DNA of 46,727 nt from Raillietiella orientalis (Eukaryota), in assembly GCA_036172245.1 (NCBI GenBank), contig JAYWIR010000108.1:124001-170727 (forward strand), read 5' to 3'. Position numbers and translations under genes: made by a program. Below, piece by piece: positions 21,561 through 42,030 of the stretch. The notes under the pieces are model-generated. The model was not told the origin of the DNA. It saw nothing but the letters and a program-made list of their open reading frames with translations, and ran no database searches. Positions within the stretch are counted from its first letter, which is position 1, and each line of letters opens with the position of its first letter.

Positions 21561-24004
21561 TCTCCTCCCTTCGAGAGGAGACCTCAGGAAACTTTGCAAC
21601 TGGCGTCCGATCACGATTGTGAACACGGACGCCAAGTTGATTGCCGGGCTGTGGGCTTCGCGATTGGGGCAGGTGTCCAATTTCATGATTAGCCCGGAGG
21701 AGAGTTACGCTGTTCCCGGGCGAAGTATGGAGGACAACCTCTTCTTCGCGAGCACATGGATGCCCGCGCAGAGGAGTAATAAAGAAGGTAAAGGGAAAAT
21801 TTGCAACCCTACTTTGGGGCCGCCAGTGGTACAGGGAAGGCACCCTCATGCGGGAAAGGGGGCCTTAGCGATCGCAGTCGACCTCCATAAGGCATTCGAC
21901 TGTGTTGACCAGGAACTCCTCTTGGAGCTCCTGGGTAGCATGGGCTTCCCACCCTCCTTGATTACCTACCTGCGCTCTTGCTGGCGGAACGCGATAGTCT
22001 CAATTTCTTTCAGTGGACAAAAGGTGTATGGCGTGCCGGTGCGGAGGGGCATAAGGCAGGGAGACAGCCTCAGCCCCCTGCTTTTTGGCACCTACGCGGA
22101 GTTGGTGCTGAAAGCGCACAGGGTGACTCTGGCCCCCTTGCCGAGCTCGTGCCCCGGCACGCCAGCCGTTGAGGCGTATGCCGACGATCTTCCGCTCCTC
22201 TTACCTATGTCCACCCCGGCGAAGGCAATCGGAGATTTCTTCGACCTGCTTATGCGTGGGGCCGGATTACAGGTTAACAGGGCGAAGTCGTCAGTGTTGC
22301 CAGTTGTAGCGACGTTGGCAGGGCAGCAGGACTGGGTCCGTCTGGGGATCCCCACGGTGAGGTGCATCAAGTACCTCGGTGTGCCGTTGGAGGATCTCTC
22401 CCCTGCGAAAGCGTGGTCCAGCTGCCTCCAGAAAGTCGAGACGGCGATCGGCCCGTTCCTGGAAGGCAAGTTTCACTTGCCGGAACGGGCCGCGGTTTGG
22501 AACGCCTTCGCGGCCCCCATCCTCCTCCCCTTGCTTTTTGTTTGCCCCTCTACCGTGGAATCCAAGAAGAGGACGAAGGACCTCCTCCGTATCGCCCTTT
22601 GGGGCAAGGGGAGGCCCCGAGTCCCTTTGAAGGACTTGTGCGCAACGCGTCGGGACGGCGGTCTCAGCATCCTGACGCTGGAGCGCGTGGAAATCCAGCT
22701 GCGATGGGGGACCCTCGCCATCGCAGCGAAGATGTGGAGCACCGCTTGGTGCATTCCGGACCGCCTCCTGGCCAGGCGTGTGAATCGCTGCGAAGGACTC
22801 GCATCGTTTCTTCTGTGGCCTGGCCGGAAGATTCAAAGATGCGGTCTAATGCTCGGCCGCATGGCAACCCTGGAAAAGGAGAACGACTGGATGGTTTGTG
22901 GCCCTGCCAACTCCTCCGCTTGGCTGGAAGAGACTGCTGGCACCTGGGCTAAGCAGAATTAGAGATGCGAAGACCGGATGAACTGCCTGCGAGTCGGCTT
23001 ATACGCCCGCCGCACTCTCCGTGAAATTCTTGAATTTCCACCGAGTTGCACGTGGGCGGAAGGCACACCCCTTCTTACGGCGATGCCCTTCCTCCCAAGG
23101 GCGCTTCACGAAAGCCGCAAGCCAAGGTGGCAAGCCTGCTGCCGTATCGCAGGCAGAGAGAACATGATGAGCGCCTGGACCATGGGAGAGTTGACAGATG
23201 CAACGACCCCTAGTCTCCAGCCGCGTGGATTAAGAAGATGGAACGAGCTGCTCGGCATTCGATTGGATGACCTGAAGTGGCCCCCGGTTCTAATTGGATC
23301 CAGGATTCTCCTCCTGAAGTGGCAAGAATCGGCGCTTCTGTGGCTGCATTGGGGTCTACCGTGCAACGCGCGCCGCTTCGACTGGACGCGGGGAAGAGTG
23401 AATCCTGCGTGTGCCAGGTGTGGGGAGCGGGAGTCGCTCCCCCACCTCTTAGTTGAATGCCCTGCCGTCCGGATTCTTTGGGATCGTCTGAAAACGGCCC
23501 TGCGGATAACGGATGGTGGCAATGTTGAATGTATCTTCAGTCTTGTCTTCGTGCGGGAAGCCCTCAGTCCAGCCGCAGCCCTGGCAGCACTTTGCTGCAT
23601 TCGTGGTATCGTGGCGGCCTGGAGTGATGCCGAAGATGAAGACTGCATCGTGAGGGACGTCATCGAGTATGCTTCTAACTTCCTGCAGAGAGCTACCCAA
23701 TGGCCCCACCTAGGAAAGCTGAAAATGGAACTAGAATGCATCCTGCAAAGGATGGGCGCTCCCATCAGTTTTCTGTGATCCCTTCCCGGCTCTCCAAACT
23801 TTTTTTTTTTTTGTGGTTTGTTTTTCTCTTTTAGTTTATTTTTGTTTTTTCCCCCATCCCCCTCCACTGCCGAGGAGAGCCACACCGGGCTGCGTCCCGG
23901 TGTCCCGGCAGTTCCGGCATTCCGTGGCCGTCAGTGGGGCCTTGTACCACGTTCTGTATTGACCGTTGAAATGTTTTTCAATAAACGTCCCGGCGTATCC
24001 GGGT
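21561..24004 (+). mobile_element. 5'-truncated LINE: RT to 3' terminus
   Basis: ORF to 22962 (NWRPITIVNTD, DLHKAFD, GIRQGDSLSP, AYADD, IKYLG) and 22978-23778 (CARCGERESLPHLLVEC). AATAAA plus hairpin at 23980-24003. Confidence 0.94.
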
Positions 24005-26639: not shown

Positions 26640-27560
26640 AGGTAGGGCAATAATCACCGGGTTAGCCGCTGCTGAGCGTGTGTCAACCGGCGGTATATTG
26701 CGGCGAGATTCCTTTTTGTCTCCTCTGTCAAATGAGGCCATCTAGCGGATGCAACCATGTAGAAGGATGCTTTGCTGATTACCTCTTTGTGCTGTCCGTT
26801 GATTACCAACGCTTGGCGGACGGAAACTATCGCGCGTATGCAACCGATGGCTGCAATCCTTGCGCTTAGGGACAGCCCGCTCAGCGTATAGAATCGTCGC
26901 AGCAAGTCTCATGCGGTGTCCACGGGATGCATTAGTGCTGTTGCCAGCCTACGCCACAGTCCTCGTAGGACACCGCAGTCCGGAAGTAGGTGCGGAATCG
27001 ACTCCGTCGATCCGCACCGAACGCAGTTCGCAGACGCAAGTCCCCCGGAGTCACGATGCCAACGCTCGTTGCACTGAAAACCCCAGTGAACGAAAAGCAG
27101 CACGGCTTGTTTCCAAGCAAGGGGGAGCAGCGAACTGTCCATACACTGTGGAGGGACTACAAGTTCTTCGGGGGTGACAGCAAGTTCTTCTTCCCACCGG
27201 AGGAGTCCCTTTGCTGTAACACTAAAAGTGGCGGCGTGCGCCAACTCACTTGTCTTCCAGGCGCCAAGGATTTTGGTTTTTCCCGCTATAGTGCAGGCAA
27301 CCTTCCACCTCGCCGGTTGGTAACTTTCGTTTCTTGCCCTGAGGGCAGACAGCGCTGCGGCAAGAGGCGTGGCAGCCAGGGTAGAAAACTTCACCTCGTC
27401 CTGCAGTACTTCTTCCAAGGATCGTGGAAAAAATTGGCGCAGGGAGCGAAGATCTTCAAAGTGTATTCCTTGGAACGCCGCCCAGGATTCAACAGATTCA
27501 ACTTTGAGTTTCCGCGCAGTCCAAGGTTTCCAAGGGGCTTGGGGAACCTTTGTGCTGCCA
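26640..27560 (-). mobile_element. LINE ORF2 C-terminal fragment
   Basis: LPLAWKQAVLLFVHWG and CVRCGSTESIPHLLPDC in ORF 26909-27571, continued in 26654-26905. Confidence 0.88.
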
Positions 27561-28095
27561 TCGGACTCCAACTCGGAGTCGAAATTTCGTGTGCACGATA
27601 AATGTTTTTTCTACCTGCTCTTTTGCTGGCAACTTGGACGTGCTCCAAAATTCAGCGAGGGTGCCACCGTCGACGATCCCCCTCTTAAGGTCTCGGCGTT
27701 GTCAACTTCCCTTTCGGGGCAGGCGGCACCGACCGCGCACTCAACCGCAGCGGAAACTTTTTCCTGCGAATTCCTTGACGTACGGGGATGCCTCCTCACC
27801 CCTCCTACTTTTCGGATGGGTAAATGGGAAGGATCTTTTGTCTTTCTCTGTTTCTTCTCCGCTTCCCCCTACAAGAATCCAGACGGCCTCTTCGTCTTTC
27901 AGGTTGCCTCGGCTCGATACGAGGGCCTTTCGAATTATTCCCGTTGGGCTATGAAAGCCAGTTGCTTTCTCGCCACCTTTGCCTTTTGCACGTTCTTATC
28001 GCAAGGTACGGACAAATTCGCAGGATTCTTGAGAGTCGAGCGAGGCTTAGGAGTCTTTCCCGACTAACGACTCGCTAAGGACGGACTGTCTTCAC
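27561..28095 (-). mobile_element. LINE ORF1 Lys-rich tail fragment
   Basis: Minus strand reads KDPSHLPIRKVGG, resembling VDPSIFPILKVGG in ORF 2487-3464. Confidence 0.6.
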
Positions 28096-28949
28096 ATTTT
28101 GCACTTAAAGGAAGTTATATGTGAGGTAGGCAAAAGAAGAATATGTGTAAATTGCGTATGTTAAGACTGGGAACGGAGAATTCTATGATAGAACTGTTGA
28201 ATGTAAAAAATAGTTTGTGCACATAAGTTCATGCAAGCGGGATTCGGAATTCATTTGAAGATTGAATGGGTGTATCTTTTAATATTGCTAATAAAGATGG
28301 TCTGAATATCAGTGCAGATTAAGTGCAGAAAAAAGAGTTGAAGGATCAAATGCAAAGAAGCTTGAAATTATTATGATCATGTTAATTGTAAATAATCGGT
28401 GGTTGTGGTGGCGGATAATGATAATTAATGTCATAGTAAACAAAACCCTATAAGAGAAATAGATAATGGCGATAGAATAATTGTTAGTAAACAGTTAGCT
28501 ATTATGAAAATCAACGACTAATTAATCATTTAAGTAGATCTTTAAATAGATATTTTAATTTGAGTTTTAATGTTTGACATTATAATAACATCCTCAAACA
28601 AACCAGTCAACTATTTATCAAAAAATGCACACAACCAGTTGTTTCGATTATAAAGGAATAATAAGAAAATATGACAACTGTAAGATAAAATTCGAAAACA
28701 TAAAAAAATGAAACATGTTTTCAAATGCACAAAAGACAGAAAATGTAGCATCGATATCTTTGGAAGATATCAGTTCTGTGCGGGATGCGGAATCGAGAAC
28801 GTAAACGAGGATAGAAAAAGTCCATTTAATTCTGCTTTTATCGCTAGATCGGCACATATGGACCTATAAAGAAAGGGTACCTGTGCAACAAGCTTCTTAT
28901 TTAGAATAATTCAAAATTCCAAAAAATATAAACAGCAAAATGCAAAGAC

Positions 28950-28955
28950 TTTATT
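28950..28955 (-). terminator. Polyadenylation signal of gene A
   Basis: AATAAA on the minus strand about 30 nt after the TAG stop at 28984. Confidence 0.6.
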
Positions 28956-28983
28956 CTACTCGAATTAAATAATAATAACACTT

Positions 28984-30978
28984 CTAGTCAGTTAAGCCCT
29001 TCAACTTTACAGTGAATGTCGTTCCAGCTGTCCATGTGCATATCAGTTTGCTAGGTACAGGCTTCACATTCCGGCCTCGACGGAGCCTAAAAAAATTCCC
29101 AGGCATTTGTTCGGAATCGAAAGTTATCCATTAAAATACGGGAAAGCATTCATAGGATAGAAAACCTTGCTTCCGCAAATTACATTCCTGCCAGAGGATG
29201 TGAGAAAGAAGGAGCAAGGAGAAGTTTGAAATAAATAATTGCAAACTCACTCTCTCCGAAAAATTTCTGAAACCTGTGCTAATTCACACAAAAGTTTTAC
29301 ATAACAGAGATGCACACAAATCAAAGAGATATTCCCGTTAACGCATTTTGTATAATGAACACAAGAAAGTAGGAACGACTTCTAGACAATGCTTTCCAAG
29401 AAGCCATGCACAACATTAGGGGTCTTAAGGATCTATGTATTCTATTGCAATGAGGCCAGAAGCAAAAGCTACCAAACTGAAAAGAAGAATGCACAAAAAT
29501 ACATACGTTTCAACTCTCCCAGAAAAAGTTAAAGAACAAGAACGGTCTGGTCCCTCAAGGAAGAAATTAATCTGCTCAGAAGCACGAGGTCCCTGCACCT
29601 GAAATCAAAAAATATTTGCGGCTCTGATAAAATTTACTCACCTCAATGTCCAAACTGCAACGACTTCTTGGTGCAGGATGTTTACGATTACTCAGCCACA
29701 CTTCACAATTAGTTCCAGTGTTGTCAAAATAAAGAAGGCACGGTCCTGTCTGACTTGTAAAATACAGCTGATCTTCTATAATTCTATCCTCATTCAAAGT
29801 GACGTTATTACACAGAGAGAGACATTGGCTATCCCTACTACAGAAGAGAAGAACAATCGAAACCTAAAAAAAACAAACTCTCAGTGAACTGGAAACAACC
29901 GGAAATGAAAACGAAAAGCAGATTGCGCAGAATTGAGCAAGCAGTTTAAAAAACGTGAAACGAGGGCATTCTAGATGATCGCAATGCTTGATATCACGAC
30001 GAGTAGTGGACGCAACTTAGTGAAGAGCACTTCCACAAGCCACACGACTCCACAAAGAATCAGGTGACTTTTCCGTTGAGCGCCCTCCATACAAGTGGTA
30101 ACGTCCAAAGGGCATTACGTTGAAAATCACATCTGACATGAGAAAGCCAAAAACATAAAGAGGATGACGACGGAATTAGAAAGCAACCACGAAGAAAAAA
30201 TACACGGAAGCCTGCATTTGAAAACGAAACAACAGACAAAAGCAATGTGACAAAGAATGCGCGAAAACTTGGAAAGGGAGGACAAAACTATTACTTTACA
30301 AGTAGGCAGACTCAGAATCCGCACGCAAGTGCTCTTCGATGGATGGACGCATGCCAAGCGCGCACGTGACTCTCTGAAGGTCGCAGCAAACGTTCACCGG
30401 ATCCGCGACTCCGCATCCAAATTTATTCCGGTCATCTCCAGAACCCATCGGTAACCAGCAGGGTTGGCTGCCGTAAAAGCGCACATGGTGAGAAAAGAAA
30501 CACTGCACACCAAGGAAGATTCCCGGAAGAGTAAGTCAACCATGTCTGAAATTCGGAGAAGACGTAACAGCAGCACATACGCCATGTAAAGTTCCAGACT
30601 CTCAAAGCAGCAATCACTTCTTCAGAGCGTACCACGGAGCCCAAGTCTATCGAGAAACTCGGCACAAATTGAAAAAATTCTGTTCTGCGGCGCGATCAAC
30701 GGAAGTGGAGACGAAGTTTCGTTTCGACGGTAGCAACGCGCGAGCCCCAGGAGAAAACAGACCACATTCTTCCGCAGTCGGCATGCGAACTAACAGAGGG
30801 CCAAAGAAGCGTAGCGTTTCTCTTAGTTGCGCGATGAAAGTCGACTACGCGACGCCGGATAAAAGAAGTTGCACGCAAGAAGAGGAAAAGCGGTCCGACC
30901 AGAGATGCAATAGCTCTTTCTACTAATGCTGCTTACGATGGTTAACAAGATGCGCCACAGCATGCTGCTGCCTTCCAT
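28984..30978 (-). CDS. Spliced gene A: small Cys-containing putative secreted protein, 152 aa (paralog of gene B)
   Basis: Hand-built model. Exon 1 30978-30937 (MEGSSMLWRILLTI, donor GTAAGC); intron 1073 nt ending TTTTTTAG. Exon 2 29863-29642 (VSIVLLFCSRDSQC...GPCLLYFDN...CEVWLSN...RCSLDIE, donor GTGAGT); 43-nt intron ending TTTCAG. Exon 3 29598-29507 (VQGPRASEQINFFLEGPDRSCSLTFSGRVE, donor GTATGT, phase 2); 420-nt intron ending TTTTTAG. Exon 4 29086-28984 (LRRGRNVKPVPSKLICTWTAGTTFTVKLKGLTD*). TATA upstream, AATAAA downstream. The structure mirrors gene B. Exon 1 assignment is an inference, and an extra small exon in intron 3 cannot be excluded. Confidence 0.8.
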
Positions 30979-31043
30979 AACTTCGCACAGGACGAGTGGT
31001 TTCTTGAGCGCTGCATTCAGCAGAGGCGCGGATTTTCTGCAGC

Positions 31044-31050
31044 ATTTATA
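31044..31050 (-). promoter_or_regulatory. TATA box of gene A (TATAAAT)
   Basis: ATTTATA on the + strand, about 70 nt upstream of the exon 1 ATG at 30978. A CCAAT pentamer lies about 25 nt further upstream. Identical to the gene B copy. Confidence 0.6.
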
Positions 31051-31399
31051 CCGAATTACGCACATTTCCAACCAATAGCAGCCATGGTCAACACTTGGAA
31101 CGACAGGAGTCAAATGTGTCGAAGACACATGGTTCTGGATTGCCTCGCATCGTGGTATCGGTGATGCATTCCTAAAGGATTGCCAGCTGCAGGAACCTTA
31201 GCTGCAAATCAGACGAGCGAAGTCTCCACGAATCTGCGCTACAAAGATTCGTTTACGATTATCGGCAAAACGCCGTGAGAAGGCACGGATCACTGCAGCC
31301 TCCCGCTCCGCCCGGCAAAACGGCAAAGAAACTCATGCAACCAAGGGAGATTTATTTCAACATATGCTGTTTCCACAGTAGCTACCTACAAGAAATACC

Positions 31400-34100
31400 T
31401 ACATATCAAGTGACGCAAAACGAATGATCTGCGTGTCGTAGAAAAAGGACCTCGCAGCTTGATATCGAAAACTACATGTCCACAGGAACAAAGGAAGTTG
31501 AAAGGCCACAAAAAGCAATGCGAGGTCGCAGGCGTTTTTTTGCTACTTGAGGCTGCGTTGATCCAATGTTGCTCGTCAGCTAAGAGGTGCACGAGTGAGG
31601 TATTACTCGAACAGATACATACTATCAGACTGTCGCAACGCTTCCAAAACGAACGTCCCAAACGAGTCCAGTTTGCTATTCGGAATACTCGCCTCCAGCC
31701 AGATTTGATGCAAGAACGCAAAATCTATATCGACAAAAAGGTGCGTCCTTTCCAGTTGCGTCGTCCGTTATCCAACACAGATGTGCGGCATTTCGTCAGC
31801 AGGTAGGGAAAACATGCAGAGAGTGGGAGTTCTCGGAGCTTCCAGGAAGGCCGTCAACTTTTCAGCGTGTTTTGCTGGAATTACGGGATTACGCTTTTTG
31901 TGGTGCGATCGCTGTTGAACTGCAGAAGCTGTGAAGTGAAGGCTTCACTGAATGAGACGGCGTTTTCCATAAAGTCAGTGACATGATAGATTTAACCGCA
32001 AGCACGAGTTGCATCGCGTGATAGTTGAGAAACAACATACGCCAAACTTCCTTCATGGACCAGTTCTCAGTCCATTAGCTGTCAACTGCACTCCCCATGC
32101 TGCGGCTTTCCAGCGCAAGCAGCATGCCGTTGGCCAAGAAGCAGAAAATCTCTTACAAATTGCCAATTCTAGCTTGCATTCTAGCTTATTCTAGCTTATT
32201 CTTAGCTCTAAAAACGAACGACAGTTTCGGATGTTTTCATAGAGATTCTAGGAAAGAACGCCGCTGGCTTCCTCCATGGATCAGGGCACATTCGCTTTTG
32301 AAGGAACAAATCGGAACTGGAGAAACACGAAGAAATCTGCGAGAGTAAAGAGAAAGCGATCGAGATCGATACAGAAAGGAGAGATCTGGCAGAAGAAAAC
32401 GATAGCATTGAGAAGTTCGTCGTTCGTGGACGCACAAAGGAGAGGAAAAAGTTTCCTATCACGGTAATGATGGCGAATCCCGACAGCTGAATGGGCATTT
32501 CTTGTGCAATAACTCGACGGTGCGAGATGACGATTCCGCGTTCACTAAAACTTGCACGGCAGCAAAGAGCTCAAAATCGCTTTCTTATCGAGCAGATTGG
32601 ATCCTTGTGCCAACTGCTCCTCAGGATCGACTCCTAGTTTTCTTAGAGCTAAACTCTTCTATGAGAATCACAGTCGCGGGCACATGGCAAAGATTCCTCG
32701 AAACAACAACTGGCGATCTCGGAAGGCTAGAAATTCCTACAAGAGTGTGTGCGGCGAAGAGTCGGAAAACAAGCAGTACGCATTTCTCCAGGATGTCACC
32801 AAAAGGAAACAAGGTTTGGCAGCCGCGTTGACAGGACGCTGGACTGAGCATCCTCATGCAAAACACGATGCAGAATCATCATCTGATTTGGGAGTTCTCC
32901 CCAGCGGCAAAGTTTCCAATGACCTATACTATTCCGATCCCGGCAAGGATAGGCTGGAATTTTTTTTCATCTACTGCGACCCAAAAATGCCCCGACTTGC
33001 ACATGAGCACCAATAGAAGGTCGATGCGGCCCTGTTCAGTGATTAAAGAAAAAAAAGGTGCTCCGTATACATTCTCATTCTGAGCTCATGCTCATTGCTC
33101 GTACCAGCAAAGCATCGAGGGAAGAAAGAAGACGTCGTTTCCTGGAAGTAATATAACTGCTTTCGCGAAAACGATCCCGAGGAACAGCATAAACAAAAAC
33201 TTGACGACAAGTAAAGGAAGATCTGCAGCAGTATCGTGAGGCGCACAATTCTGTTGGTTGTTTGTTTCCAGTGTCAGCTGCCTGACGCTTGGGATTTCAC
33301 CGCTGTTCCTGGAGGAGATATTTCCAAGACCGATTCAGATTGAAACCTCGTTGGCTGAACTGGTGATGCCCGTACGTACTTTGAATAGCTTCGGGTGCTT
33401 TCCGTTACGCGGCACGACTGGGCCACGTGATCCCGCATTGGACCATGCCATGCAACACACGGTAACATCAGTGATGCAGAAAGACCAGGATTCCAGATGG
33501 AGCCGAATTGGATGAAGGGCTGCTGCTGCTGCACACGCTCTGAGTGTTCCGTTGTGCCAGAAATTTTTGTGGCTCCGCCGACTTTCCCGCAGTCGTAGAG
33601 TTTCGTTCGTGCGGGAAAAGTGCTCGATGCGCAACTGCAGTGAGAGAGCCACGATCGTCAGCAGCTTCGCGTCTCCGACTTTTCACTCTCATGAGTGCGG
33701 AGCGTTATCAGATACACATATAATGTTACACCCAGGAAGACTGCACTCGGTGGCGGCGCCCAGAGACGCCTAGGATGGGGTAGTGTGGGTGTGAGGAATA
33801 CGTGGCCTTCCGTTGACGTTTGCGAGGAATCTCTGTGATTCCTTCGCTCCACTTAACTTTATCCTGAGTTCTGCAATGGAAGTGTTCAAATCGTTTGGGC
33901 GATCATGCTTTCTGCCCTTTCTTTTCCACCAGGAAAAGCTTTCTTCTTCCTTATCCAGACGAAAACTTTCTTAACGCATTCAAGCACCACCATTTTAAGG
34001 TTCTCTATTTCTTTTATTACCTCATCTGTCCCTACAATTTTGTTTCAGACTTTCGTTTCGGTAAGTGGTGTGGAAACACGCGCGCCGCAGGTGCGCTTCT
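31400..34100 (+). mobile_element. Ancient, heavily decayed non-LTR retrotransposon inside the left arm (different family from the flanking elements)
   Basis: Degenerate motifs occur in the correct order across frames. ORF1-like: IRLSQRFQNERPKRVQF..KIYID (~31620-31735). APE-like: ITVMMANPD (~32460), YRADW, YYSDPGKDRLEFFF (~32925-32970). RT-like: TSLAELVMPVRTLN, PNWMKG, RAGKVLDAQL, CDSFAPLNFILSSAMEVF (cf. QGDxLSPxLFxLxME) and LPYPDENFL (cf. YADD). Confidence 0.6.
32166..32207. repeat. Short tandem repeat (ATTCTAGCTT) x ~4; mirror copy at ~37470-37511
   Basis: ATTCTAGCTT-GC-ATTCTAGCTT-ATTCTAGCTT-ATTCTTAGCT read directly. Confidence 0.75.
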
Positions 34101-35579
34101 TGTTAGTCGGGAAGCGGATGGCGAGAATACGCACCTGCGTGCTGTAAGTCTGTGCGGGCAAAGAATGGGGACCGTGCGTGCCGAGAACTTTCCGTCCATG
34201 TTTTCGGAACGAGAGGAGATCATAGAGAGAGCCAAAGAAGGGGAACGTTTTTGACCACCACGGTAGCCGTGGTCGATTATTAGGTTCATCCAGCCGTTCC
34301 CTTTCCTTTCCAGGTTTGCGGCATGAAAATATCTTATACGGGGGCACTCCTCACGATCGAGGGTATACCTGGTCTGACGCATCCGCCTTGGTTCCCGAAT
34401 AGGAAGAGCACAAATTCCAAATTGAAGGGTACGCTGAGGACCGTCTACGGAACATCGGGATGAAGAAAGGGCTACAGGACACCGTTAGATACTAAATCGC
34501 AGATTCTTCCGGAGAGTTTCTAATCGTTGACATCCTGTGTGAGAACTTGAAACTGTGTGTATATAAAGTACGAAGAAAACTGAAATCAAATGCTTCTCAG
34601 AGCGCTGTTCCGTCGCCGCAATGCTTCCTGAAAACATGCTTAAAACACATCAGAAAAAACGCAATTTTTTTCCTCCCATCGAACGGCTATATAAAAAAAG
34701 TGAACTTTGCTTAAGAGCAAGTCGACCAAACCGTTGACGAGGAGTGAGTGAGAAATACTCCTTTGAAAGAGATGGATTACTGCATGCTAGGTAACGCTTT
34801 GAAGTCAGTATTTCTTTTTCGGATGAAAGCCCGGACTCGTTGACCAGGAAAGGCTAGTAAGATGCTGAAAAAATTCTAGTGAACCAATACAGATCTAAAA
34901 CTACTGACTTCCATTTGGAAAAACATGTGTTTTGTAAAACTTATAAACAGATGTGTTTTGAATTTTTGTAGATGCCACCTGCGCATCACGTAATTCTTAA
35001 GAAAGCATTCTTCAGAGAGTTCATAAAGCATTTCATGCAAAGAACTAGCAGCTCTTTTTTATGAAAGGGGAGTAACAAAAAGAATTTATGTCCATCGATT
35101 TGAGCGTGGAACTTCTGCGGCAAAGGGAGCACGTTAACAGAACCGCAAGCAATACAAATCTTAGTCAAATACGTACACGCAGATTATTTTAGCAGAAAAA
35201 TTCCTGTTCCTTGAAAGATGCTGCTTCTCCAAATGATGACCGTGAGAACAAAGAGGCGCGATCGCAACCAATAGCACCGATCTTCATTGCCCTTGTATAC
35301 TATGTTGCTATGTCCTTTGAAAACCCACAAGACTTGAAGGCATTATACGTGACTGGATTGCAATTAGAGCAACCACAAGTAGCACCCACGCTGCTACATC
35401 CGGTAAAGCTACTTTAGATTTCTCACGTCACTAAGTAGTCAGTAGATGAAGATCTGCATCGCTAACTCCGTTCGGATATTTCAACTCATCGTGACAAAGG
35501 AAACATGTTGCCCCCATTCCGTGCTGCTGTTGAATGCCAGTTCAGCAAACATGGATGACGTGTCACCAAGAACGCCAAC

Positions 35580-38280
35580 TTCCGAACACCTGTCGCTTTC
35601 GTGTTTCCACAGCACTCACCGAAAAGAAAGTCTGAAACAGAATTGTAGAGAGAGGAAAGGTAATGAAAGAAATAGAGAACCCTAAAATGGTGGTGCTTGA
35701 ATGCGTAAGGAAAGTTCCCGGTGAGCATAGTTAGAAGAAAGCTTTTCCTGGTGGAGAAGAAAGGGCAAAAAGCATGATCGCCCACACGATTTAACACTTC
35801 CATGGCAGACCTCAGGATGAAGTGGGGTGGAGCGAGGGAATCACAGAGACCCCTCCCAAACGTCAACGGAAGGCGACGTATTCCTCACACCCAAACTACC
35901 GCATCCTAGGCGTCTCTGGGCGCCACCACCGAGTGCAGTCTTCCTAAGTGTATCATTATCTGTGTATTTGATAAGGCACCGCACTCATGAGAGTAAAAAA
36001 TTCAAAAGCGCGAAGCTGCTGACGATCGTGGCTCTCTCACTGCAGTTGTGCATCGAGCACTTTTCCCGCACGAAAGAAACTCTACGACTGCGGGAAAGTC
36101 GGCGGAGCCACAAAAATTTCTGGCACAACGGAACACTCAGAGCGTGTGCAGCAGCAGCAGCCCTTCATCCAATTCGGCTTTCTCTGGAATCCTGGTCTTT
36201 CTGCATCACAGATGTTACGGTGTGTTGCATGGCATGGTCCATTGCGGGATCACGTGGCCGAGTCGTGCCGCGTAACGGAAAGCACCCGAAGCTATCCAAA
36301 GTATGTACGGGCATCACCAGATTAGCCAACGAGGTTTCAATCTGAATCGGTCTTGGAAATATCTCCTCCAGGAACAGCGGTGAAATTCCAAGCGTCAGGC
36401 AGCTGACACTGAAAGCAAACCACCAACAGAATTGTGCGCCTCACGATACTGCTGCAGATCTGCCTCCACTTGTCGTCAAGTTTTTGTTTATGCTGTTCCT
36501 CGGGATCGTTTTCGCGAAAGCAGTTATATTACTTCCAGGAAACGACGTCTTCTTTCTTCCCTCGATGCTTTGCTGGTACGAGCAATGAGCATGAGCTCAG
36601 AATGAGAATGTATACGGAGCACCTTTTTTTTCTTTAATCACTGAACAGGGCCGCATCGACCTTCTATTGGTGCTCATGTGCAAGTCGGGGCATTTTTGGG
36701 TCGCAGTAGATGAAAAAAAATTCCAGCCTATCCTTGCCGGGATCGGAATAGTATAGGTCATTGGAAACTTTGCCGCTGGGGAGAACTCCCAAATCAGATG
36801 ATGATTCTGCATCGTGTTTTGCATGAGGATGCTCAGTCCAGCGTCCTGTCAACGCGGCTGCCAAACCTTGTTTCCTTTTGGTGACATCCTGGAGAAATGC
36901 GTACTGCTTGTTTTCCGACTCTTCGCCGCACACACTCTTGTAGGAATTTCTAGCCTTCCGAGATCGCCAGTTGTTTCGAGGAATCTTTGCCATGTGCCCG
37001 CGACTGTGATTCTCATAGAAGAGTTTAGCTCTAAGGAAACTAGGAGTCGATCCTGAGGAGCAGTTGGCACAAGGATCCAATCTGCTCGATAAGAAAGCGA
37101 TTTTGAGCTCTTTGCTGCCGTGCAAGTTTTAGTGAACGCGGAATCGTCATCTCGCACCGTCGAGTTATTGCACAAGAAATGCCCATTCAGCTGTCGGGAT
37201 TCGCCATCATTACCGTGATAGGGAACTTTTTCCTCTCCTTTGTGCGTTCTTGAACGACGAACTTCTTAATGCTATCGTTTTCTTCTGCCAGATCTCTCCT
37301 TTCTGTTTCGATCTCGATCGCTGTTTCTCTACTCTTGCAGATTTCTTCGTGTTTCTTCAGTTCCGATTTGTTCCTTCAAAAGCGAATGTGCCCTGATCTC
37401 GGGAGGAAGCCAGCGGCGTTCTTTCCTAGAATCTCTATGGGAACATTCGAAACTGTCGTTCGTTTTTAGAGCTAAGAATAAGCTAGAATAAGCTAGAATG
37501 CGAGCTAGAATTGGCAATTTGTAAGAGATCTTCTGCTTCTTGGCCAACGGCATGCTGCTTGCGCTGGAAAGCCGCAGCATGGGGAGTGCAGTTGACAGCT
37601 AATGGACTGAGAACTGGTCCATGAAGGAAGTTTGGCGTATGTTGTTTCTCAACTATCACGCGATGCAACTCGTGCTTGCGGTTAAATCTATCATGTCACT
37701 GACTTTATGGAAAACGCCGTCTCATTCAGTGAAGCCTTCACTTCACAGCTTCTGCAGTTCAACAGCGATCGCACCACAAAAAGCGTAATCCCGTAATTCC
37801 AGCAAAACACGCTGAAAAGTTGACGGCCTTCCTGGAAGCTCCGAGAACTCCCACTCTCTGCATGTTTTCCCTACCTGCTGACGAAATGCCGCACATCTGT
37901 GTTGGATAACGGACGACGCAACTGGAAAGGACGCACCTTTTTGTCGATATAGATTTTGCGTTCTTGCATCAAATCTGGCTGGAGGCGAGTATTCCGAATA
38001 GCAAACTGGACTCGTTTGGGACGTTCGTTTTGGAAGCGTTGCGACAGTCTGATAGTATGTATCTGTTCGAGGAATACCTCACTCGTGCACCTCTTAGCTG
38101 ACGAGCAACATTGGATCAACGCAGCCTCAAGGAGCAAAAAAACGCCTGCGACCTCGCATTGCTTTTTGTGGCCTTTCAACTTCCTTTGTTCCTGTGGACA
38201 TGTAGTTTTCGATATCAAGCTGCGAGGTCCTTTTTCTACGACACGCAGATCATTCGTTTTGCGTCACTTGATATGTAGGT
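35580..38280 (-). mobile_element. Mirror copy of the ancient decayed non-LTR retrotransposon in the right arm
   Basis: Same motifs as the left copy. This copy reads RGLCDSLAPPHFILRSAMEVLNR (ORF 35486-35866), closer to the RT consensus RGLRQGDxLSPxLFILAMEVL. Confidence 0.6.
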
Positions 38281-39741
38281 ATTTCTTGTTAGTAGCTACT
38301 GTGGAAACAGCATATGTTGAAATAAATCTCCCTTGGCTGCATGAGTTTCTTTGCCGTTTTGCCGGGCGGAGCGGGAGGCTGCAGTGATCTGTGCCTTCTC
38401 ACGGCGTTTTGCCGATAATCGTAAACGAATCTTTGTAGCGCAGATTCGTGGAGACTTCGCTCGTCTGATTTGCAGCTAAGGTTCCTGCAGCTGGCAATCC
38501 TTTAGGAATGCATCACCGATACCACGATGCGAGGCAATCCAGAACCATGTGTCTTCGACACATTTGACTCCTGTCGTTCCAAGTGTTGACCATGGCTGGT
38601 ATTGGTTGGAAATGTGCGTAATTCGGTATAAATGCTGCAGAAAATCCGCGCCTCTGCTGAATGCAGCGCTCAAGAAACCACTCGTCCTGTGCGAAGTTAT
38701 GGAAGGCAGCAGCATGCTGTGGCGCATCTTGTTAACCATCGTAAGCAGCATTAGTAGAAAGAGCTATTGCATCTCTGGTCGGACCGCTTTTCCTCTTCTT
38801 GCGTGCAACTTCTTTTATCCGGCGTCGCGTAGTCGACTTTCATCGCGCAACTAAGAGAAACGCTACGCTTCTTTGGCCCTCCGTTAGTTCGCATGCCGAC
38901 TGCGGAAGAATGTGGTCTGTTTTCTCCAGGGACTCGCGCGTTGCTACCGTCGAAACGGAAGTTCGTCTCCACTTCCGTTGATCGCGCCGCAGAACAGAAT
39001 TTTTTCAATTTGTGCCGAGTTTCTCGATAGACTTGGGCTCCGTGGTACGCTCTGAAGAAGTGATTGCTGCTTTGAGAGTCTGGAACTTTACATGGCGTAT
39101 GTGCTGCTGTTACGTCTTCTCCGAATTTCAGACATGGTTGACTTACTCTTTCGGGAATCTTCCTTGGTGTGCAGTGTTTCTTTTCTCACCATGTGCGCTT
39201 TTACGGCAGCCAACCCTGCTGGTTACCGATGGGTTCTGGAGATGACCGGAATAAATTTGGATGCGGAGTCGCGGATCGGGTGAACGTTTGCTGCGACCTT
39301 CAGAGAGTCACGTGCGCGCTTGGCATGCGTCCATCCATCGAAGAGCACTTGCGTGCGGATTCTGAGTCTGCCTACTTGTAAAGTAATAGTTTTGTCCTCC
39401 CTTTCCAAGTTTTCGCGCATTCTTTGTCACATTGCTTTTGTCTGTTGTTTCGTTTTCAAATGCAGGCTTCCGTGTATTTTTTCTTCGTGGTTGCTTTCTA
39501 ATTCCGTCGTCATCCTCTTTATGTTTTTGGCTTTCTCATGTCAGATGTGATTTTCAACGTAATGCCCTTTGGACGTTACCACTTGTATGGAGGACGCTCA
39601 ACCGAAAAGTCACGTATTTCTTTGTGGAGTCGTGTGGCTTGTGGAAGTGCTCTTCACCAAGTTGCGTCCACTACTCGCCGTGATATCAAGCATTGCAATC
39701 ATCTAGAATGCCCTCGTTTCACGTTCCTCAAACTGCTTGCT
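35587..39741. repeat. Right arm of the ~4.15 kb inverted repeat
   Basis: Reverse complement of 29936-34093. Near-identical in the core, more diverged towards the inner end. Confidence 0.98.
38627..38633 (+). promoter_or_regulatory. TATA box of gene B (TATAAAT)
   Basis: GGTATAAATG about 70 nt upstream of the ATG at 38699. ATTGG (reverse CCAAT) at 38601-38605. Confidence 0.6.
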
Positions 39742-40799
39742 TATTGCTGCTAAATCTTTTTCTCCGCATTTGACGTTTCGCATACTTTACCAAAATCACT
39801 CACTGTTTGTTTTTCGTAGGTGATTCCTGGATTTTTATGCTTCAAGGAAAGTGGTTCCGATTCTTCTGACATAGAAAAGTTTACTGCTGCTCAGGATAGG
39901 GCTCTCTCAGAAGTAGTGGGCTTCGAAGATCAACGCGGACCTTGTGTTTCTTTTTTTACCAACCGTGCAGGAGCATGCGAGATAGCTCTGACTAATTCAC
40001 GTTCCACGTTGGGTCGTGGTGTTTGCTCGGTGTCTTTATTTGTAAGCTGATTTCTCATACGCACTGATCTTATTAGCATTTCAGTCATTGAATCCCCTAA
40101 CTAGTGTGGAATTTAGTTTCTTTTTAACGGAATTCAGTGGAAGCTGTTATCTGACGGTAGGAGGTTTAACTTGGAGGTATGTGTTACTTGTGCTGACTCC
40201 ATGTTTGTATATTGGCACTAGTTGAGAAAGTTTGAGTGTTGATTTTCGTTTGTTTTTCTGTAGTTTTTAGCTCTCCTCAAAAAGATTTTCGAGTGTCTGT
40301 ATATTCCAAGCCGGTTTCTGTGTCCTTTGGTATTCGTGGACGTACTCTTTTTTTCGTATCTTTCTATAATCGTAGTATAACTTAGCGTAATATTAGTGTA
40401 ACTTCGTACATTTTTGTATAACCTCACTTTGACCTAATTTGTTAACGTTTGTACACCTTATAATGTTTCTTTTTAAAGTTTTCGGTATTTTTGTAATCTG
40501 TTTGCGGATTTCCGGATTTTCAGTTGTTCTTGATATCGAAAACGCGCAGTTTTGAATGAACGTGCTTATGAACTATTGATTGATTTGTCTATTGGTTTTA
40601 ATGTATTCTCTAATTTCGTGTTTATCCTTGAATATACTTAAGGTTAGAGCCTGGATTCCATTATGGAGTTGCTCCTAGCAAGTTAAAGTGTAGTTGGTCC
40701 ACTCTTAGAGGAAGCCGTTTCACAGTTACAATCAGATCTCCACCTATAATTGCTCGGAAGGTCTTCAACGTTACCTCTGAAGATTCTTCTGTAGAATGA
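38699..40799 (+). CDS. Spliced gene B: small Cys-containing putative secreted protein, 170 aa (paralog of gene A)
   Basis: Exon 1 38699-38740 (MEGSSMLWRILLTI, donor GTAAGC); intron 1079 nt ending TTTTCGTAG. Exon 2 39820-40041 (VIPGFLCFKESGS...GPCVSFFTN...CEIALTN...VCSVSLF, donor GTAAGC); 43-nt intron ending TTTCAG. Exon 3 40085-40176 (SLNPLTSVEFSFFLTEFSGSCYLTVGGLTW, donor GTATGT, phase 2); 466-nt intron ending TAAG. Exon 4 40643-40799 (LEPGFHYGVAPSKLKCSWSTLRGSRFTVTIR...SSVE*). Exons 2 and 3 have exactly the same lengths as in gene A (222 and 92 nt). Confidence 0.8.
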
Positions 40800-40808
40800 G
40801 CTTTTAAG

Positions 40809-40814
40809 AATAAA
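40809..40814 (+). terminator. Polyadenylation signal of gene B
   Basis: AATAAA 9 nt after the TGA stop at 40799. Confidence 0.6.
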
Positions 40815-41379
40815 AACGTTCTGACCATTACTTTGAATGTTTTTGAATGGTAGTTATTTACAGCTGGAAAAAGATACAATAGGAATTCTCACTTCGTGAC
40901 TCGATCATTAAGAGACGAGGTCGAATATAAGGATGAAATGCTCGCATTATTCTTTCTACGCATATTGAAATTTTCTTCTTGAAAACACATGTTGCAGAAA
41001 GAATCTCCTGAGCCCTATCTTGCGTAACAGAACTTCGTTCGAAACACATAAAATAGCAGCTGGATCCGGCAATCATTTATTTCTCCAAGCAACGAGTCTC
41101 GTCTACTCACTATGCTGCAGTTTACCGTTGACCTTTCTGCAAACCCTGTCGCTTGCCATCATCACGATATCCAGGGTTTTCAAAGAAAAATCAGTGTTAC
41201 TTCTAGGGCTTTGTAATTGCTTTTCCCGATTTTCCACGATAGATAATGACAATATCGTCACGTTGGCTACGTGTAAAATGTCCCGCATGGAAATCATACG
41301 TCCTCCTTCATGTGCAGACATATTGTTAAAACAAAGCAGTGTACTTGGTCAGCAATAGGTACATTGCTACATTCTGCTA

Positions 41380-42030
41380 CTCCGAAATGATGTTCGGCGA
41401 TTGGCGCGCGTGCAGGGCAAGCTTCCACCTGCCAAAACAAAAAGAGACAAGCGAAACGCCAGTCTCGCGTTAGGCATTCGGAGTCCGAGTGGGGTCCGAT
41501 TGCAAAGAAACAGAGCGCGCATTCCTGAGTAACGCGGAAGTGCGCCGGTGTAAAATGCGCAAGCACGAGCCTGTTGCCAGAGACGCTTCCGGCCCATGCT
41601 TGGAGCCCGAGATGATGATTCACGGCTCCCAGGACTCAGCTGGGTGCGATGTGGCTTTGAACACAAGCGATTCCGTTTCCCAATCCTCTGTGCTCCTGCT
41701 GAGTTCTCGCCGGACGGGGCAAATAGTACGCTGTCATATCCGCAGCAGTAATGCGTGAACTCGAGTCCCCTCGTCGTGTCAGTGTGACCTGTTGGAACGT
41801 CAAGGGTCTGCGCAACGCTGACAAAAAGCGGACGGTAGCCAACGCCTTGCGCGCTTTTGATCTGGTGCTGCTCCAAGAGATACATACCATCTCCGAACGG
41901 CAGGCATCGGATGTGGAAAAGCGCGCGCGTGACGCTACACTGGCGGCAAGGCTCCGCGCATACGTGCGGAGTCGCGTTTCTCTTCCGGAATGGCTACCTT
42001 CCAAGATCCCTAAGGTGGTACCGAAACGTT
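41380..42030 (+). mobile_element. LINE fragment: ORF1 tail + endonuclease N-terminus; close relative of 1311-4389
   Basis: RRVSVTCWNVKGLRNADKKRTVANALRAFDLVLLQEIH (41751-). The upstream DNA matches the reverse complement of ~2390-2720. Confidence 0.9.

Follow-up and report, generated by a model that had tools for sequence, protein, structure and literature searches.

Conversion of the 5′ part of two duplicated genes, with a tract border in intron 2, is known from the human G-gamma and A-gamma globin genes, and the genes of beta-defensins and of snake-venom phospholipase A2 (PLA2) offer a parallel for a conserved signal end and intron next to fast-diverging mature exons. In conotoxin superfamilies, introns are conserved and the mature-peptide exon is the most variable part (PMC3862624). 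For sex-chromosome palindromes the literature describes arms of more than about 8-10 kb, which are >99% identical and contain whole gene families (PMC8327919, PMC8981503, PMC8600007), and GC-biased conversion (GC, guanine plus cytosine) was reported for palindromes of the X chromosome (PMC8981503). The closest precedent found is the primate gene pair SIGLEC11/SIGLEC16, which lies head-to-head about 9 kb apart, with upstream regions and first exons being 97-99% alike and 3′ parts that differ (PMC5701461). About 2-3 kb have been homogenised there by fragmented conversion that recurred in each of the primate lineages (PMC5701461). The locus described here is situated in a 46.7-kb stretch of contig JAYWIR010000108.1 (the window) and consists of two predicted genes, A and B, whose 5′ ends lie in the two arms of a palindrome. 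Like SIGLEC11 and SIGLEC16, they are positioned head-to-head a few kb apart, with an apparently homogenised upstream region and 5′ exon and with distinct 3′ parts.

Judging from the sequence comparisons presented below, A and B are probably ancient head-to-head paralogues, the 5′ modules of which have been repeatedly homogenised by intrachromosomal gene conversion between the palindrome arms. This 5′ module would consist of exon 1, about 95% of intron 1 and, ahead of them, the TATA box and approximately 3.1 kb of upstream DNA. A repeat search yielded four contiguous arm pairs, which delimit an inverted repeat of 4.18 kb (29913-34093 and 35587-39764), and blastn joined both arms in one alignment of 4183 nucleotides (nt). 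A third copy of the arm was not found by blastn in the window. The elements of the palindrome are the following.

29913..34093, strandless, palindrome arm 1 (4181 nt), containing the upstream DNA and TATA box of gene A along with its exon 1 and the greater part of intron 1
34094..35586, strandless, unique spacer (1493 nt), not palindromic
35587..39764, strandless, palindrome arm 2 (4178 nt)

The two arms are separated by 128 substitutions and seven indel columns (135 differing columns in total), which are strongly clumped and divide the alignment into five segments, given here in coordinates of arm 2.

35587-36467, arm divergence segment, 8.5%
36468-37222, arm divergence segment, 0.13% (755 nt)
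37223-37530, arm divergence segment, 6.2%
37531-39593, arm divergence segment, 0.68% (2063 nt)
39594-39764, arm divergence segment, 11.1%

The two tracts of low divergence (0.1-0.7%) sum to 2.8 kb, while the other three segments diverge by 6-11%. When the 128 differences were placed uniformly 100,000 times, none of the placements matched the longest difference-free run of 569 nt. Of the 34 differences in the core, 19 are packed into 308 nt (P=3e-11). A 283-nt stretch (38599-38882), which spans the TATA box, all of exon 1 and the beginning of intron 1, is free of any difference between the arms. Identity is graded at both arm edges, and towards the body of gene B it falls off from around position 39594 and is gone by 39764, 55 nt ahead of the exon 2 acceptor. 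The substitutions comprise 73 transitions and 55 transversions and are direction-symmetric, so that a bias resembling repeat-induced point mutation is absent. An earlier sequence-only reading of this DNA had described a 4.15-kb inverted repeat with near-identical copies of the 5′ parts of two genes, with near-identity ending about 75 nt ahead of the exon 2 acceptors. The inverted repeat is real, albeit 4.18 kb in length, and the position of its end was a fair estimate. Near-identity, however, applies to the two low-divergence tracts (99.3-99.9%) and not to the arms as a whole, which form a mosaic with segments of 6-11% divergence and an overall identity of 96.8%.

A tandem repeat with a 10-nt unit (AGCTAGAATA-type) was detected by Tandem Repeats Finder in both arms, at 32166-32207 (3.9 copies) and at 37470-37499 (2.9 copies). 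It is located in the 6.2% island between the two near-identical tracts. As such a repeat could be mutation-prone, and as there are just two copies to compare, it might be argued that one 5′ module was copied over the other in a single recent event, by an inverted segmental duplication or a replication template switch, and that the copies then underwent ordinary decay with local mutation hot spots, conversion not having recurred. This appears rather unlikely, as one event cannot give 0.1-0.7% divergence beside 6-11%, a clumping that uniform placement never reproduced, and as the graded edges at both arm ends look like variable tract ends.

Genes A (-) and B (+) have four exons each, point outwards and start inside their respective arms, with the ATG of A at 30978 (-) and that of B at 38699 (+) in head-to-head orientation. 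Their predicted products comprise 152 (A) and 170 (B) amino acids. The features of both gene models are listed below.

38627..38633, + strand, TATA box of gene B (TATAAAT), 66 nt before the ATG and within the arm-identical 283-nt stretch
38699..38740, + strand, exon 1 of gene B, 42 nt, MEGSSMLWRILLTI, with a GTAAGC donor immediately 3′
38741..39819, + strand, intron 1 of gene B, 1079 nt, of which the initial 1024 nt lie within the arm
39820..40041, + strand, exon 2 of gene B, 222 nt, lacking a Met codon and with an in-frame TAG directly 5′
40085..40176, + strand, exon 3 of gene B, 92 nt, after the 43-nt intron 2
40643..40799, + strand, exon 4 of gene B, ending with a TGA stop; AATAAA at 40809-40814
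31044..31050, - strand, TATA box of gene A (TATAAAT), the mirror copy of that of gene B, 66 nt before the ATG
30978..30937, - strand, exon 1 of gene A, the same as exon 1 of gene B in 42 of 42 nt
29863..29642, - strand, exon 2 of gene A, 222 nt, lacking a Met codon and with an in-frame TAG directly 5′
29598..29507, - strand, exon 3 of gene A, 92 nt, after the 43-nt intron 2
29086..28984, - strand, exon 4 of gene A, ending with a TAG stop; AATAAA at 28955-28950

All six introns have GT-AG borders, and exons of 42, 222 and 92 nt, an intron 2 of 43 nt and the intron phases 0,0,2 are common to A and B. In both genes TATAAAT and AATAAA are found at the expected places, the latter roughly 10-30 nt past the stop codon. 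In gene B, the acceptor site of exon 4 is weak. With no Met codon in exon 2 of either gene and an in-frame TAG before it, translation has to begin in an exon further upstream. A hydropathy scan showed that exon 1 (MEGSSMLWRILLTI) together with the start of exon 2 yields a hydrophobic core of about 12-16 residues, which is typical of signal peptides, and both products are predicted to be secreted. Transcription, splicing and co-regulation of A and B are likewise predicted from this sequence logic.

The interval of the sequence-only reading (28950..40814) extends from the AATAAA of A to the AATAAA of B, and its outward-pointing genes with exons of 222 and 92 nt, a 43-nt intron and phases 0,0,2 were all matched by our gene models. 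Mirror copies of the TATA box and of exon 1 were also recovered, exon 1 being identical throughout, as was the mirrored part of intron 1, about 95% of which lies in the arm. The proposed sharing of a signal-peptide exon is true for the first 14 residues, which are all that exon 1 encodes of the signal peptide, but the rest of the core is encoded by exon 2 and is not the same in A and B.

The homology of the two genes beyond exon 1 is evident at the protein level. Compared exon by exon, 21 of 74 residues are identical in exon 2, 10 of 24 (local alignment) in exon 3 and 12 of 32 in exon 4, close to the previous counts by hand (20/74, 10/31 and about 12/33). The spliced proteins without exon 1 reached a local BLOSUM62 score of 173, while shuffled sequences scored 28.4±4.7 (z=30.6) and none of 2000 shuffles attained the observed score. 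This alignment contains 42 identities among 138 aligned residues, corresponding to 30% identity over exons 2-4. Furthermore, cysteines are found at residues 56, 67, 83, 109 and 135 in spliced A as well as in spliced B. As this colinearity across three splice junctions works only with the right splice models, it provides the best internal support for them. At the nucleotide level, exon identity at codon positions 1, 2 and 3 is 0.38, 0.46 and 0.41, with 0.26 expected by chance, third codon positions being near saturation. The identity of intron 3 is at chance level (0.295 with an expectation of 0.293, i.e., 29.5% and 29.3%). Given this intron identity and proteins which are 30% identical, the duplication that gave rise to A and B is, by sequence divergence, old, as previously suggested, and would be far older than the homogenisation of the arms. 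The flanks at 28001-28981 and 40800-41300 have a GC content of 32-39% and share no similarity with each other. As the downstream flanks are dissimilar, the ancient duplicated unit seems to stop near the stop codons of A and B.

These comparisons also bear on the idea that A and/or B are not expressed coding genes, but decaying relics or misread non-coding DNA. This idea draws on gene models built from sequence, on the weak exon 4 acceptor of B and on the absence of any homologue in the databases searched. It is nevertheless very unlikely, as the reading frames of both genes are intact through four exons, the cysteines and exon phases are kept, and the exons, unlike intron 3, exceed chance identity.

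Searches for relatives of the two proteins used single exons instead of whole spliced proteins, which lowers their sensitivity. Individual Pfam scans of exon 2 of A and of exons 2 and 4 of B matched no family (best E=0.27), SAG/SRS and 6-Cys-like domains, which had been considered, included. An exon 2 profile had no match among PDB sequences, nor did exon 2 of B match any longer protein in a word-indexed search. Searching 1.84 billion representative proteins with a profile of both exon 2 copies resulted in three weak hits (E 1.5e-6 to 5e-4), two to bacterial-type adhesin or RTX-like proteins and one to a protein with a teneurin-like galactose-binding-domain match. As all three are very long and highly repetitive proteins, these hits were judged to be spurious. 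In metagenomes, a protein-pattern scan gave 121 pattern matches of which none was confirmed, and the exact 24-nt exon 1 pattern had no match. A and B are thus predicted to be small, secreted, cysteine-containing proteins without detectable relatives in the libraries searched, although whole-protein searches and structure prediction might still place them in a known fold. As no relatives of either protein were found, the case for coding is made by the comparison of A with B.

The divergence classes within the arms together with an intron 3 at chance level point to three or more age layers. The simplest and most likely history suggested by this pattern is that an old duplication was followed by homogenisation in two or more episodes, the tract ends of which differed, and gene conversion between the arms is most likely the responsible mechanism. 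Conversion tracts would stop within intron 1, at the limit of usable homology, while exons 2-4 and introns 2-3 would be too diverged for conversion and hence continue to diverge. As a by-product, two distinct mature proteins would be placed under practically one promoter and would have a common signal-peptide start. The later homogenisation of the regulatory half proposed by the sequence-only reading is therefore upheld by the divergence classes and by the placement test (0/100,000) for at least two episodes, but to call it continual goes beyond the pattern.

An unrelated public DNA run (X1) provided a few contigs for comparison, which are short (151-305 nt) and of low depth (2-5), with 0.08 of the sampled words of the window being present in the run. 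Many bins are empty, including exon 1. Three contigs over the spacer and intron 3 of B showed 0/239, 1/151 and 4/305 differences (98.7-100% match), whereas five contigs over the arm showed 3/150, 14/146, 5/151, 12/244 and 12/138 (90-98% match). Within the first four of these intervals, no more than two differences separate the two arms of the window. The difference of 2-10% between the contigs, whose origin is uncertain, and the arms exceeds the difference between the arms themselves. This weakly hints at further versions of the 5′ module, be they additional paralogues or a different homogenised haplotype of another strain and, likewise weakly, at more than sequence constraint behind the near-identity of the arms. 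Contigs at 38373-38518 and 39229-39755, in the promoter-proximal arm and in intron 1, match at just 90-95%, and some contigs carry the arm-1 states at 39278, 39658 and 39697 together with differences of their own.

The higher deviation of X1 contigs over the arm than over the spacer and intron 3 of B would be in agreement with a 5′ module that is common to a larger, dispersed family with hypervariable mature exons. Ectopic conversion within such a family would produce the mosaic, and the palindrome would be one local instance of it. The same logic is seen in conotoxin superfamilies (PMC3862624). We consider this explanation unlikely, as the window contains neither the arm nor the coding exons in a third copy, and as the X1 contigs, none of which covers exon 1, are short and shallow and may stem from another strain, another organism or sequencing error. 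The contigs also bridge neither the borders between spacer and arms nor those between arms and genes, as would be compatible with an assembly artefact, either a fold-back chimera or a misjoin of two loci in the spacer. A fold-back, however, predicts identical arms without a spacer, while the arms observed here enclose 1.49 kb of unique DNA, differ in 135 columns and have graded edges. Moreover, the symmetry extends past the arms as diverged homologous exons. An artefact is therefore highly improbable.

Several points speak against the history favoured here, i.e., repeated gene conversion between the arms of an old gene pair. The models of A and B follow from sequence logic alone, and it is the comparison of A with B alone that speaks for their coding status. 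Conversion is deduced from the pattern alone, in two arms of one genome, and the diverged tracts may have been imported from a third copy instead of being old sequence that escaped conversion. The excess of X1 mismatches in the arm over those in unique parts is not predicted by a simple two-copy model. Finally, the GC content of intron 1 in the arm (47%) is higher than that of intron 3 (33-37%), which would fit GC-biased conversion, but this contrast may simply reflect the composition of 5′ and 3′ gene parts.

The arms and the spacer were also inspected for other content. The spacer (34094-35586) exhibited neither mirror symmetry nor a recognisable gene, and none of 13 open reading frames (ORFs) from arms and spacer matched a Pfam family below E=0.1. 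A homologue search with the longest arm ORF (P0006) had no match, no internal or terminal repeats were found in the arms, and an Rfam scan of 27500-42000 returned no family at gathering score. With no Rfam family reaching this score, no non-coding RNA was recognised in the arms or in intron 1. Likewise, the arms were rejected as a transposon, as terminal or internal repeats, a Pfam domain, a homologue of P0006 and another copy in the window are all lacking. An invertible-promoter switch was discarded as well: a full 5′ module is present at each gene and recombination between the arms would merely flip the spacer. Besides exon 1, the content of the arms looks like promoter, upstream and intron DNA. 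Hallmarks of a gene or transposon that would otherwise explain the conservation of the arms are lacking, which counts in favour of homogenisation by conversion.

The gene pair is embedded in a patchwork of fragments of long interspersed nuclear elements (LINEs), which occupies 1-28 kb and 41.4-46.7 kb of the window in both orientations. Copies are 64-97% alike and match RVT_1, Exo_endo_phos, zf-CCHC and zf-RVT. The GC content is 55-57% in these flanks and 32-48% in the 13-kb gene island between them. The closest database relative of the LINE reverse transcriptase is 64% identical and all others 30% or less; this relative was placed with generic reverse-transcriptase clusters only, one of the entries being bacterial and most of them eukaryotic. 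ARAGORN reported a 98-nt tRNA-Gln(TTG) at 22592-22689 (+) inside a LINE reverse-transcriptase ORF, probably either a spurious prediction or a tRNA-derived part of the LINE. The ratio of observed to expected CpG is about 1 across most of the window (LINEs, arms and spacer). As CpG is not depleted, this argues against a vertebrate-like methylated genome.

The locus is of interest as conversion in a diverged gene pair would have been confined almost entirely to regulatory and intronic DNA, with age layers that can be read from the sequence. If expression is confirmed, it would be a natural test of whether identical promoters give identical expression of two different products, and also of where conversion tracts stop as homology decays. 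The roles put forward by the sequence-only reading, a heterodimer or a mating or antigen system, are hypothetical. It is conceivable, albeit rather improbable, that the palindrome is a selected regulatory device and more than a by-product, in which conversion limited to promoter, exon 1 and intron 1 would hold two long-diverged secreted proteins under one control, for co-expression of two subunits at a fixed ratio or for alternative recognition forms, or else a node of a larger orphan family with a 5′ module spread by conversion. In such an orphan family the mature exons would diversify in a conotoxin-like manner which would have arisen independently.

Compared with the globin genes mentioned at the outset, the repeated conversion of the 5′ modules favoured here agrees in affecting the 5′ part of duplicated genes and in having a border inside an intron. 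The gamma-globin genes, however, are direct repeats with coding regions that are nearly identical throughout, while A and B are inverted and diverged. With conotoxin genes, the locus shares a conserved signal end and intron beside fast-diverging exons for a predicted secreted, cysteine-containing peptide. Conotoxins, unlike A and B, form large dispersed or tandem families, the conservation of which is not tied to a palindrome and for which positive selection was shown; here there are two copies in the window, and no sequence similarity to conotoxins exists. Like the sex-chromosome palindromes cited above, the locus has inverted arms around a unique spacer, a high identity that is ascribed to conversion, and arms with a higher GC content. 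It differs from them in having arms of 4.2 kb with 96.8% overall identity, of which two tracts reach 99.3-99.9%, and in that each arm holds exon 1 (14 codons) only, the gene bodies lying outside. The claim of the sequence-only reading that this locus is the reverse of typical palindromes is fair with respect to such sex-chromosome palindromes, but it overlooks precedents such as SIGLEC11/SIGLEC16 (PMC5701461). In accordance with that pair, the converted region appears fragmented, here into five segments with two levels of divergence, which indicates several events. Unlike in SIGLEC11/SIGLEC16, where the homogenised part encodes the functional ligand-binding domain, the coding part affected here is MEGSSMLWRILLTI, i.e., 14 residues of the signal peptide, all else being promoter and intron. 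Furthermore, recurrence by lineage was demonstrated for the SIGLEC genes, whereas conversion is read from one locus here, and the proteins are unrelated. On present evidence, the locus is an unusually clear variant of a known process, namely partial gene conversion between paralogues in inverted orientation, rather than a new kind of system.

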